The position numbers were made by a program, and so were the translations under genes. From positions 1-64,000 of IMG/VR virus record IMGVR_UViG_2509276064_000002: a stretch of DNA of 64,000 nucleotides; one strand, written 5' to 3'. Numbering within the stretch: position 1 is the stretch's first letter; each line of letters starts with the position of its first letter. The notes below the pieces were generated by a model. That model was not told where the DNA came from. It ran no database searches and worked only from the letters and a program-made list of their open reading frames with translations. This DNA is from a virus. Its lineage: Duplodnaviria; Caudoviricetes. Shown here one piece after another: positions 49,213 to 52,455 of this stretch.

Positions 49213-49515
49213 TCAGCCCTCCTGAGCAGGAGCCTTGAGGGCGGCGAGGATCTCCTCAGCGAGCTTCTCGCCGACACCCTTGACCGCGATCAGACGGTCG
49301 TGGGCGTCCTCGGGGAGCAAGGGCTGAGCACGCAACTGCTCCAGTTCGGCCGTCGCTTCCGCGTACCGCCGTTCCTGGGCCGCCTGAACGGCCCGGAGGT
49401 CATCCAGTTGCTGCTGGAGAGCGGTCGCCTCTCCCCCACCAAGCTGCTCGGTCTGGGCTTCCGCGACGGGCTTGCCGTTGGCGTCAACTTCTACGCCGTC
49501 ACGAAGGAACTTCAT
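49213..49515 (-). CDS. Small coiled-coil protein with helix-hairpin-helix motif
   Basis: LIAVKGVGEKLAEEIL HhH motif; directly after the capsid gene. Confidence 0.7.
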   Translation of the reverse strand: MKFLRDGVEVDANGKPVAEAQTEQLGGGEATALQQQLDDLRAVQAAQERRYAEATAELEQLRAQPLLPEDAHDRLIAVKGVGEKLAEEILAALKAPAQEG

Positions 49516-50678
49516 GCCGTCCCACCATTCGTCGGATCCGCATAGGTCCCGGGGGTGCCGTTGAACTGCGCCACGGCCGCCGCGCCACGGTTGCGCACGC
49601 CGTACCCGACTTCGCGGCCCCAGTACTCGCTCTGCAGGGGGAAGGTCACGATGGTCCCCACCATGCGCAGGCCGGGAGCGCCCACCACGGCATCCTCACC
49701 CGTCGGCTCACGGCGAGCGATGGGCTTGACCGCAGCGTTGGTGTCCACGGCCGCTGCGTAGTTGGGGAAGATCCAGCTCTTCACCCAAATCTCGGCCCCA
49801 TTGAACAGCCCGATCATGCGGTTGTTTTGACGACCCGTGTCCAAGCGCTGCACGGTCACCGTCTGGTTGACGCTGACGATCACGTTGGGGTCAACCGCAG
49901 GCGTGAAGCCCGAGAACCCGCGCACGGCCTCTTCCTGGGCCACGTTGATGTAGACCTCGATGCGCGCGTTGTTGGTGTGCTCCGCGACGTTGAGGATCAG
50001 CGCGTTCAGGTTGGCCGCTGTGAAGGCCGAGAAGCCCATGTAATGGCTGTGCGTACCGTCCCAGGTCTCGCCGTTCGGCCCGAGTGGAGGCGCCGTGCCG
50101 TCGTTGTTGTAGAGCGCCTTGACGGGCAACTCCATGTTGTCGCGCAGGAAGTCGTAGAACGTGCTGTTCGTCGGGTTGAACAGCGTGTTCCGGATCAGCT
50201 GGATCGTCTTGCGACGGTCCGCTGCCTCGGCGTTGTACGTGCTCACCGCGATCTGGGCAGGTGTGGCACGCGCCAGGAAGTCACCCGTGAAGCCCACACC
50301 GAACTGGAACCGGCGCATGGGAATGCCGATCTGGGGCGGCGCTCCGGTCTTCTGGGTGGCCACACGGCCGTACTCGTCGACCTCGCGCATCTCGCCTTCC
50401 AGCAGGATGCCGGAAGCGTCCGCCACGATGCGGCTGGGGGCGGCCTGGACGAGGTTGCCCACCATGTCATTGATCTGGTTGTTGTGGACCGCCAGTTCGG
50501 CTTGCACCGAAGCTTGAACATCTTCTAGGCCAAACTGAATCACGGTCTGGTTCGTGACGTTCTGCAGGTCACGCAGATCATAAGTACCGGTGCGAATGGG
50601 GGCACGGCGAGGGCTGGAGGCCATGGCCAGGGTTACACCGAGGAGGCTCAGGGTGCTCAAAGAAGTGAACTTACGCAT
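49512..50678 (-). CDS. Major capsid protein with N-terminal leader
   Basis: 388 aa, position after scaffold and decoration genes; MREVDEYGRVATQK-type E-loop region. Confidence 0.8.
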   Translation of the reverse strand: MRKFTSLSTLSLLGVTLAMASSPRRAPIRTGTYDLRDLQNVTNQTVIQFGLEDVQASVQAELAVHNNQINDMVGNLVQAAPSRIVADASGILLEGEMREVDEYGRVATQKTGAPPQIGIPMRRFQFGVGFTGDFLARATPAQIAVSTYNAEAADRRKTIQLIRNTLFNPTNSTFYDFLRDNMELPVKALYNNDGTAPPLGPNGETWDGTHSHYMGFSAFTAANLNALILNVAEHTNNARIEVYINVAQEEAVRGFSGFTPAVDPNVIVSVNQTVTVQRLDTGRQNNRMIGLFNGAEIWVKSWIFPNYAAAVDTNAAVKPIARREPTGEDAVVGAPGLRMVGTIVTFPLQSEYWGREVGYGVRNRGAAAVAQFNGTPGTYADPTNGGTA

Positions 50679-51079
50679 TAGCCCACCTTCCCGAAGCTGC
50701 GGGTCACGATGAGGTCCGAGGTGCCGACGGCGAAGAAGCTGCCGTTCGCATCCTTGGTGCCTGCCGTGTCGGAGATCTCGCCCACGGTGTCGGACAGGAA
50801 GTACGTCTTGCCGATGGTGAGGGTCTGATCGGCCGCACGGAACTGCGTGCTGAGACCGTAGGCGGTCATGGGCTGGCCGGTGCGGCCCGAGCGGGGCGCG
50901 ATGCCGAAGAAGACGCTGTTGGCCGTGCCAGCGAAGCGCCAGAGCTTGCCGTCAGGACGAAGCTCCATGGGCTGACCAGCGGCGACGTCCTCGCCGAGGA
51001 TCTTCCCAGCGTGCTGCTGGGCGAACTGAGCGCTGGTGGTGTCCACCGAAGCGCGCGGGCTGCGTACGATATTGGTCAT
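50678..51079 (-). CDS. Head decoration/cement protein
   Basis: GEDVAAGQPMELRPDGK...FFGIA...GKTYFLSDTVGEIS beta-tulip-like pattern. Confidence 0.7.
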   Translation of the reverse strand: MTNIVRSPRASVDTTSAQFAQQHAGKILGEDVAAGQPMELRPDGKLWRFAGTANSVFFGIAPRSGRTGQPMTAYGLSTQFRAADQTLTIGKTYFLSDTVGEISDTAGTKDANGSFFAVGTSDLIVTRSFGKVG

Positions 51080-51095
51080 GTTTTAAAACCTCCGC

Positions 51096-51833
51096 CTACA
51101 TGGAGTAATCGCCAGAGGCACGCTTCTCCGCTGCGATCTGCTCGGGCGTGCGCGCACCACTGGTGAGGCCACCGTTCCCGCCGAGGGGCACGATGGGGGT
51201 GGTGATGGGGTTCTGCCGCTGCTGCACCTGGTTGTTCCCGCCACCTTGGGCGGCTAGGGCCGGCAGGAAGTCGCCCCACTGTTCCTTCGCGTACTGGTCA
51301 AGCGGGACAACCTTGTCGGCCAGCTTCACGCCGTACGTTTTGACCTTCTCGCCTGCCTTCTCGCCGTCCACCTCGATCTCCTCGAAGGTGAGGTCCCCAC
51401 CGAGACGCTCAAGCACGCTGGGCTTGTAACCAACCTTGTCGGCCACAGTGCGCAGCGTGTCGCGCTTCTTCAAGGTGCCGAGTTCAGAGGTCGCCGTCTC
51501 GCCATCCGCGAGCTTCGTCTTGAGCTCGTCCGGCTTGCCAAGTGCCTGGTACGCCGCGTACCGTTCTGCATCAGCCTTGCTGAGCACCACAGAGCCGTCG
51601 GGAAGCTTGGTCTTTTCGACCTCGCCTTCCAGGGTGCGGATTCGGTCCCGGTAGTTGGCGTTCTCGCCGAGCAACGTCGCTGCGAGCGCAATGGCGTCAC
51701 CGTTGTGCTTGCTCAGCAGGTTCTGCAGGTTCTGCGCGGCCTTCTGGGGATCAGGCTCCCCTTCAGCACGGCGGGGCAGGCTGGCCAGGGCAAGCATGGC
51801 GGTCAGAGCGAGGGTGCGGGGGAAGGTCTTCAT
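51096..51833 (-). CDS. Capsid scaffolding protein with N-terminal leader
   Basis: Helical, Gly/Gln-rich C-tail ending EQIAAEKRASGDYSM; position. Confidence 0.75.
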   Translation of the reverse strand: MKTFPRTLALTAMLALASLPRRAEGEPDPQKAAQNLQNLLSKHNGDAIALAATLLGENANYRDRIRTLEGEVEKTKLPDGSVVLSKADAERYAAYQALGKPDELKTKLADGETATSELGTLKKRDTLRTVADKVGYKPSVLERLGGDLTFEEIEVDGEKAGEKVKTYGVKLADKVVPLDQYAKEQWGDFLPALAAQGGGNNQVQQRQNPITTPIVPLGGNGGLTSGARTPEQIAAEKRASGDYSM

Positions 51834-51951
51834 GTCTGTTCCTCCTTGGGAACGCGCGGTTCCTGCGCCTTGGCAGAAACGACGAAGCCCCAGACCTTGC
51901 TGGGGCGACGTGGACGGACGGGACTTACCCCAGACCTTGCTGGGTGCCGAG

Positions 51952-52455
51952 TTAGAGGGTCAGGTCAGGGAAGGGATCAGGACGATCCCGGGCAAGTGCG
52001 TGAACCACCAGGCCATGGCCGTCCTCGAAGGGGTAGGCCTCAACGACTGCTGGCGCGATGACTTCCACCCGGTGGGGCTGCGCGTACTCGCTGGCCAGGA
52101 ACTGATCCCAGGTGAAGTGCAGCAGCTGCCGCTCGCGGCTGTCGCTGACCGTCGCCCAGTGCCCCGGGGTCAGCTCGAGCGCCACCGCGTGCTGAATCTC
52201 GCCGAGGCGCCGGGCTGGAATGGAAACGAGAAACTGCTGCTCACCCTCGTGAAGCCGCGTCCAGAAGGCCGGCGGGGCAGGCTCACCCACGTACAGGGCC
52301 ACGGCCATCAGCCCCAGCTCGTGAATGCGGGCGTAGAAGCGAGGCTCACTCACGTCATGAACGTGGGCCAGCAGCAGCTCTTCGCCGCTCAGCGCGTAGA
52401 GGGCGTGATACGTGCAACCGGAGAAGGTGGTCTGGTGTCGGTGGTGCAGCATCAC
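51952..52455 (-). CDS. Papain-fold C39-like cysteine protease, putative prohead protease
   Basis: Q8-x5-C14, H89-x15-D105 spacing as in C39 peptidases; lies between portal and scaffold. Confidence 0.6.
   Translation of the reverse strand: MMLHHRHQTTFSGCTYHALYALSGEELLLAHVHDVSEPRFYARIHELGLMAVALYVGEPAPPAFWTRLHEGEQQFLVSIPARRLGEIQHAVALELTPGHWATVSDSRERQLLHFTWDQFLASEYAQPHRVEVIAPAVVEAYPFEDGHGLVVHALARDRPDPFPDLTL

Follow-up and report, generated by a model that had tools for sequence, protein, structure and literature searches.

The 64,000-nt stretch analysed here (positions 1 to 64,000 of the IMG/VR record IMGVR_UViG_2509276064_000002; referred to below as the window) belongs to a tailed phage (Duplodnaviria; Caudoviricetes), a prophage whose host is a Deinococcus, and its minus strand carries a complete head module. 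Between the portal and scaffolding genes of this module lies a 167-aa open reading frame (ORF; 51952..52455) predicted to encode a cysteine peptidase with a papain fold and an architecture resembling that of C39 leader peptidases, and the scaffolding protein and the major capsid protein encoded downstream of it begin with a shared hydrophobic N-terminal leader. We infer that the peptidase probably cuts this leader off both proteins. All features of the window described below are located on the minus strand.

The peptidase ORF can be read from a GTG at 52455 (167 aa) or from the ATG that forms the next codon at 52452 (166 aa), and this GTGATG overlaps the stop codon of the portal gene. In GTG numbering, the putative catalytic residues are the oxyanion glutamine Q8 (52432-52434), the nucleophile C14 (52414-52416), H89 (52189-52191), and D105 (52141-52143). 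All four had been named in a preliminary reading of the DNA made from the sequence alone (the original prediction), and a codon check bore them out, together with every other sequence detail given there. No match was obtained for the peptidase in Pfam, PHROG, NCBIfam, or PDB sequences using protein and profile searches, and a word-indexed homologue search returned only the peptidase itself. Homologues were gathered first from the neighbourhoods of capsid relatives and then by exhaustive profile search. In all related Deinococcus prophages reached through the capsid, the gene immediately upstream of the scaffold gene encodes a homologue, and Q, C, H, and D were invariant among six homologues with 31-52% identity. 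The exhaustive profile search extended the family to 117 clusters at 50% identity, ten of which were looked up and found to be unnamed. Among 107 family representatives, the Cys was present in 99 of 99, the His in 105 of 106, the Asp in 100 of 105, and the Gln in 94 of 98, so that the proposed catalytic set, with an invariant Cys and nearly invariant partners, holds across the family. A tblastn search with the peptidase against 50,697 records of isolated phages produced zero matches. Of 124 other Deinococcaceae genomes, 18 contain a family member; of the 239 further genomes of the phylum that were scored, none does. A host paralogue was ruled out, there being a single match in the host genome, and the three Pfam C39 matches of the host are unrelated loci.

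The AlphaFold 2 (AF2) model of the peptidase was obtained with a predicted local distance difference test score (pLDDT) of 84 and a predicted template modelling score (pTM) of 0.79, and has a helix that begins at residue 13. The C39 peptidase domains of PCAT1, LahT150, and ComA occupied the top ranks in a Foldseek search with this model. Alignment to the same three domains using VIA-align gave Z scores of 11.5-12.0 and a root mean square deviation of 2.9-3.0 Å over 123-125 of ~135 residues, compared with Z scores of 9-10 for other papain-like families (GtgE, PeiR, Josephin, staphopain). When residues 1-135 of the model were aligned to residues 5-141 of ComA, the Cys, His, and Asp stayed in register; the catalytic residues of ComA, which we take to be C17, H96, and D112, agree with the VIA-align registers. 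The structural neighbours of an independent ESM-Atlas model were mostly PF03412 clusters. The modelled architecture thus shows the features expected of a C39 peptidase, namely Q-x5-C, a Cys at the N-terminus of a helix, and His and Asp placed ~75 and ~91 residues further on. At the sequence level, a Pfam scan of six homologues gave no Peptidase_C39 match even at E <= 10, and two profiles of the family (A2 and A4) found no C39 chain in the PDB. When hhalign was used to compare a 60-sequence family alignment with 12 bona fide C39 domains of the same phylum, the probability was 1.9% (P = 0.025, not significant); the alignment was co-linear over 118 columns and matched Q, C, and D to their C39 counterparts, with His displaced by one column. 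The proposal of a C39-like protease can be retained for the fold, which is papain-like and nearest to C39 by AF2, Foldseek, VIA-align, and ESM-Atlas, and has to be given up for sequence membership. We conclude that the peptidase belongs to clan CA and has a C39-like architecture, and that it and its homologues form a new sequence family outside Pfam Peptidase_C39.

The scaffold leader comprises residues 1-23 (51765-51833; MKTFPRTLALTAMLALASLPRRA) and is followed by an acidic EGEPD, while the capsid leader comprises residues 1-26 (50601-50678; MRKFTSLSTLSLLGVTLAMASSPRRA) and the conserved capsid body begins at T30 (TGTYDL). The scaffold ATG is preceded by AAGGAGG 7 nt upstream and the capsid start by the ribosome-binding site GAAGGTGGG; since these strong Shine-Dalgarno sequences stand before the leader start codons, the leaders were read as translated. 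The shared leader ending in PRRA, as originally described on both proteins, was thereby confirmed. In the AF2 model of the capsid protein, residues 1-29 form the sole long low-confidence stretch (pLDDT < 50), the remainder adopting an HK97 fold. Among 61 capsid homologues, 36 have no extension: in most of these the start lies 1-6 residues ahead of the TGTYDL-type motif, a few being impossible to anchor to it. In the other 25, the N-terminus is extended by 14-29 residues, and for most of them the extension is a basic, hydrophobic leader that ends in an Arg-containing motif. Leaderless scaffold homologues (loci L007, L011-L013, L102, L105, and L106) likewise begin at the acidic or coiled-coil part. 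Because the leaderless capsid homologues start near the TGTYDL-type motif and residues 1-29 are disordered in the model, the capsid leader is, as judged from sequence comparison and structure prediction, an add-on.

The leader was collected on 37 head proteins from ~19 prophages. Its common plan consists of an M-K/R-K-like start, a core rich in Leu, Thr, and Ala that often reads LT(A/L)LL, and an Arg-(x0-4)-Gly/Ala motif, usually followed by Glu or Asp, with a spacing between core and presumed site that varies among leaders. The motif LA[LM]AS[LS]PRRA put forward in the original prediction is accordingly present in this phage and does not serve as a family motif, the family-wide features being the basic N-terminus, the Leu/Thr/Ala core, and Arg-(x0-4)-Gly/Ala. 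The leader occurs on three capsid families (phrog_3990, phrog_29, and PF05065) and on a 143-aa head protein. When a hidden Markov model (HMM) of the leader was run against the N-termini of 183,377 host ORFs, only the scaffold and capsid proteins of the window, both training sequences, scored at E < ~0.03; what is informative in this result is the absence of any other scoring host protein. Taken together, the conservation of Q, C, H, and D and the recurrence of the leader in 37 head proteins form a pattern beyond chance. Within a phage, the leaders of scaffold and capsid were also more alike than leaders were between phages (318 of 20,000 permutations, P ~0.016), a mildly significant result from eight phages, uncorrected for relatedness, to which little weight was given.

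The leader and the peptidase gene were found together in the window, in loci L001-L005, L009, L010, L040-L050, and L062, and in genomes G058, G062, and G029. Overall, ~20 Deinococcaceae or metagenomic prophages encode leader-bearing head proteins, and all of them possess a family member, in most cases as the gene that immediately precedes that of the scaffold. A second group (L042, L044-L048, and L050) carries the leader on the scaffold, the 143-aa protein, and the phrog_29 capsid, and in L062 it is found on an HK97-type PF05065 capsid, again with the peptidase present. The peptidase also accompanies a leader in L041, where it is borne by the scaffold only; in this locus (G081:C1, reverse 1896-3635), a 579-aa unrelated ORF replaces the cement and capsid genes after the peptidase gene and the leader-bearing scaffold, possibly through rearrangement or decay of the head module. 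Capsid and scaffold are both leaderless in L007/8, L011, L012, and L013, and a six-frame HMM search of the fetched loci revealed no family member. The same applies to the leaderless capsids and scaffolds of L102, L105, and L106 (Deinococcus), the whole genomes of which (G090, G069, and G048) contain no family member. Among Deinococcaceae capsids of the phrog_3990 type, all leader-bearing copies (9 of 9) are in genomes with the peptidase. The original prediction had proposed to test whether protease and leader go together in homologous prophages; they do, and leaderless relatives lack the gene.

These results are best accommodated if the protein is a stand-alone cytoplasmic papain-fold peptidase that resembles in its build the leader-cleaving C39 enzymes of bacteriocin exporters and that would recognise and remove a leader of 20-29 residues from scaffold and capsid. 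The predicted cut sites in this phage lie between PRRA and EGE in the scaffold and between PRRA and PIR in the capsid protein. As with C39 substrates, the P1 residue would probably be small, either Gly or Ala, and the leader core is predicted to be helix-prone. Leader and peptidase act as a portable two-part module, the leader having been grafted onto three unrelated capsid families, onto their scaffolds, and onto one further small head protein; the module is dispensable, since relatives exist without both of its parts. As to purpose, we would guess that the leader is a transient pro-peptide that may coordinate or delay the co-assembly of scaffold and capsid and may also recruit the peptidase, which would liken it to the leader of phage 80alpha.

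Several findings weigh against leader removal by this peptidase, or limit how far it can be generalised. Kinship of the peptidase to C39 was not established at the sequence level. In a quick tree of the capsids, 24 of the 25 leader-bearing proteins of the phrog_3990 lineage fall into one clade, to which the leaderless L007 protein is sister, so the main lineage provides only one or two independent events; the three non-homologous leader-bearing capsid families are the stronger argument. A prophage of genome G063 (L053/L063) has an intact, though distant, member of the family within a 376-aa ORF that lies upstream of TerS (L053), while its head module of the second-group type (scaffold, 138-aa protein, and capsid; L063 6746-9023, G063:C24) is leaderless. 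More distant members are located in replication-like or terminase-adjacent phage contexts, and since these lie outside head modules, an association with head genes does not hold for the entire family. Finally, three Deinococcus prophages whose head module is related to that of the window (L109/L110, L108/L111, and L107/L112) have 13-16-residue extensions on both scaffold and capsid (e.g., MTRFLTVHLATAAAK and MKKILSLALYLPRVGQ) and no C39-like gene. Two of these three encode a metalloprotease-type Prok-JAB protein (PF14464) between TerL and the portal (L110, G048:C50, 3198-3755; L112, G027:C31, 3180-3584; both reverse), and the short extensions together with Prok-JAB may form a parallel leader/protease pair with a different enzyme.

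Leader removal can also be taken further, in a reading that we regard as unlikely: leader and peptidase would be a portable assembly-tag system added by Deinococcus phages to unrelated capsid, scaffold, and accessory head proteins. The leader would hold these proteins together, possibly at a membrane or in a condensate, until they are released by the peptidase; Prok-JAB might then serve in the sisters with short extensions, and the arrangement would be a second, independent layer of control over head assembly beside a classical prohead protease. Three rival explanations were weighed against leader removal by the phage peptidase. The first, which is unlikely, is that leader and peptidase are linked by descent only, the real substrate of the enzyme being elsewhere (the portal, a minor head protein, the peptidase itself, or a host factor) and the leader being cut by a host protease or never. 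The small number of independent events in the main capsid clade, the intact member beside leaderless head proteins in the G063 prophage, and the distant members outside head modules would all fit such a linkage. It leaves unexplained, however, why the leader accompanies the enzyme on three non-homologous capsid families and why the sister lineage represented by L007 lost both leaders together with the gene. In L062, moreover, the genes are ~5.5 kb apart, so plain linkage fails to explain their pairing, and the host offers neither a paralogue of the enzyme nor an L27-type leader for a host protease. Mimicry of the substrate of the host protease Prp was excluded as a candidate, as the host L27 starts MAHKKGVG with no extension and the leader HMM finds no host protein.

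A signal-peptidase-like, membrane-tethering role of the leaders had been raised in the original prediction on account of their AxA ends. In this view, which we consider improbable, they would act as Sec-type signal peptides or as anchors in the membrane, processed by the host signal peptidase or retained as an uncleaved tether, and the C39-like protein would act on another target, such as a protein of the host or a different one of the phage. The layout of n-, h-, and c-regions, the hydrophobic core of 10-15 residues, and the Gly or Ala at the presumed -1 position do resemble a signal peptide. According to the -3/-1 rule, signal peptidase I requires uncharged residues that are small or aliphatic at both -3 and -1, with Pro excluded from -3 to +1, but at the inferred site Pro or Arg occupies -3 in 24 of 37 leaders, which makes it a poor signal-peptidase I site, and Glu or Asp occupies +1 in 26 of 37. 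Phage heads are assembled in the cytoplasm, where the DNA is packaged, and it is there that the scaffold and the HK97-fold capsid protein must come together. The leader HMM picks up no secretory protein of the host, the core is a specific LT(A/L)LL-like motif that goes beyond generic hydrophobicity, and the joint loss of leaders and peptidase gene would find no explanation; the signal-peptidase or membrane-tether alternative is thus a poor fit. Least probable is that the peptidase is a non-proteolytic leader-binding module or chaperone comparable to the dead C39-like domain of HlyB. Substrate-binding C39-like domains that do not cleave exist, and HlyB itself was among the structural matches (Z ~9). 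Such domains have lost the catalytic Cys, though, which in this family is invariant (99 of 99) in the company of nearly invariant His, Asp, and Gln.

Leader removal by the phage peptidase also has to be set in relation to classical prohead proteases. The original prediction stated that no such protease was recognisable, which holds for the S78 and S49 types in the window. Pfam and PHROG scans of the nine head-module proteins identified no classical prohead protease, and in the whole genome Peptidase_S78 gave zero matches and all Peptidase_S49 matches were outside the window; models of the ClpP and T4 gp21 types were not searched genome-wide. The placement of the C39-like gene in the prohead-protease slot was nevertheless overstated. 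In L062 (G001:C9), a Peptidase_S78 gene (3787-4656) is kept directly upstream of the leader-bearing HK97-type PF05065 capsid gene (4659-5915; leader MKLRHLNLLTLSAALTSAAVSVPRAYG), and the C39-like gene is situated before TerS (L052). The presence of S78, leader, and C39-like gene in one phage suggests that the leader peptidase can be layered on classical maturation and is not a substitute for a prohead protease. Of the phage-encoded papain-fold maturation system with its own leader that had been proposed, the fold, the residues, and the co-occurrence stand and the replacement of a prohead protease is not supported. The most fitting description of the protein is that of a dedicated leader peptidase added to head assembly, and the phage of the window simply has no classical protease, like SPP1 or P22. 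A gene for an HslV/Ntn-hydrolase-like peptidase (phrog_1040, N-terminal MT...) was observed directly upstream of the C39-like gene in L009 (4602-5144) and L046 (21-593, reverse), and is a candidate for a second head-module protease.

The remainder of the head module was assigned as follows. TerS (55366-56088; Terminase_2) is followed by TerL (54029-55369; Terminase_3) and, next downstream, by the gene for the 521-aa portal protein (52452..54017), which is directly upstream of the peptidase gene and in translational overlap with it. The portal was recognised as SPP1_portal/DUF4055-like from ESM-Atlas features (0.97-0.98) and from structural template modelling (TM) scores of 0.59-0.67 to SPP1_portal/DUF4055 clusters. 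The peptidase gene (51952..52455), defined by its ORF, residues, and AF2 model, is followed, after a spacer of 118 nt (51834..51951), by the scaffold gene; the spacer includes the scaffold ribosome-binding site and, at 51870-51945, two copies of the 17-nt hairpin-forming sequence CCCAGCAAGGTCTGGGG. The RNA fold of the spacer was no better than that of shuffled sequences (z = -0.78). The spacer may be a boundary between portal and peptidase genes of low expression and scaffold and capsid genes of high expression, a regulatory role being speculative. The 245-aa scaffolding protein (51096..51833) was assigned from an alignment of homologous scaffolds across 10 loci. It is followed by a leaderless head decoration or cement protein of 133 aa (50678..51079), assigned by position and homology, with weak Phage_cement matches of the equivalents in L007 and L010; its N-terminus, MTNIVRSPRAS, is non-hydrophobic. 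The 388-aa HK97-fold major capsid protein (49512..50678) matches phrog_3990 over residues 30-384, and its AF2 model had its best PDB matches by Foldseek in the capsids of phages Patience and Adjutor, with SU10, lambda gpE, and others more distant. Directly 3' of the capsid gene is a 100-aa ORF (49213-49515) with weak helix-hairpin-helix matches (PF00633/PF14520) below the cut-off, and a small gene resembling it sits at the equivalent place in relatives.

To our knowledge, every prohead protease that has been studied well is a serine enzyme, either assemblin-like or ClpP-like, and the only leader common to scaffold and capsid that we know to have been studied is that of phage 80alpha, where the enzyme belongs to the host and the purpose of the leader is still unclear. 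If leader removal by the phage peptidase is true, a phage C39-like peptidase with its own leader code would be a new enzyme class in virus maturation, and the logic of a leader peptide plus a C39 peptidase would reach from exported peptides to large cytoplasmic assemblies. In that case, the 117 unannotated clusters could also receive a name in phage annotation. The natural plus and minus variants in two capsid lineages provide a clean genetic system for studying leader function.

Among known systems, the C39 domains (ComA PEP, PCAT1, and LahT150; MEROPS C39, PF03412) resemble the phage peptidase in fold, in their size of ~135 residues, and in the Gln-x5-Cys...His-x15-Asp spacing. They remove N-terminal leaders that contain a hydrophobic helix and have a small residue at P1, and the same is presumed for the phage enzyme. 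C39 enzymes are, however, N-terminal domains or partners of ABC exporters and act on exported peptides, whereas the phage peptidase gene stands alone, with no transporter in the head module, and its product is presumed to be cytoplasmic and to act on large structural substrates. C39 leaders end in Gly-Gly, and the GG/GA/GS cleavage motif has no counterpart in the presumed phage substrates, which lack GG and carry Arg-(x0-4)-Gly/Ala at a variable distance from the core; the enzymes themselves show no significant sequence similarity.

Classical prohead proteases (HK97 gp4/S78, lambda C/S49, and T4 gp21) are likewise encoded in head modules and process capsid and scaffold during maturation. They differ in being serine enzymes of the herpesvirus-assemblin or ClpP type that degrade delta domains or scaffolds inside the prohead, and the occurrence of S78 beside the leader/C39-like pair in L062 shows that the two systems are not equivalent. 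A literature search for a C39-like or papain-like head-maturation protease, or for capsid processing in Deinococcus phages, yielded nothing relevant, which is no proof of absence. The combination of a phage-encoded papain-fold enzyme, a hydrophobic Arg-x-Gly/Ala leader, two or three head substrates, and portability appears to be new, as it was found neither in the literature searched nor in the 50,697 isolated phage genomes.

In Streptococcus phage Cp-1, a phage-encoded cysteine protease of clan CR trims an N-terminal extension of the capsid protein (PMC9405229). As described in that source, this enzyme differs from the present one in having a Prp-like fold and clan and not a papain/C39 fold, and the description of it includes no shared scaffold leader. 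In staphylococcal phage 80alpha, too, one short N-terminal leader is common to the scaffold and the major capsid protein, and a cysteine protease, there the host Prp (MEROPS C108), cuts it off. The 80alpha scaffold leader is essential for assembly while its cleavage is dispensable (PMC5744158), and Prp acts on it because the phage leader mimics the extension of L27 (PMC5744158, PMC9405229). Prp has a different fold and is host-encoded, whereas the system described here would combine a phage-encoded papain fold with a hydrophobic leader twice as long, in a setting with no L27 extension. Phage 80alpha is therefore the closest precedent in function, and the C39 leader peptidases are the closest in structure.

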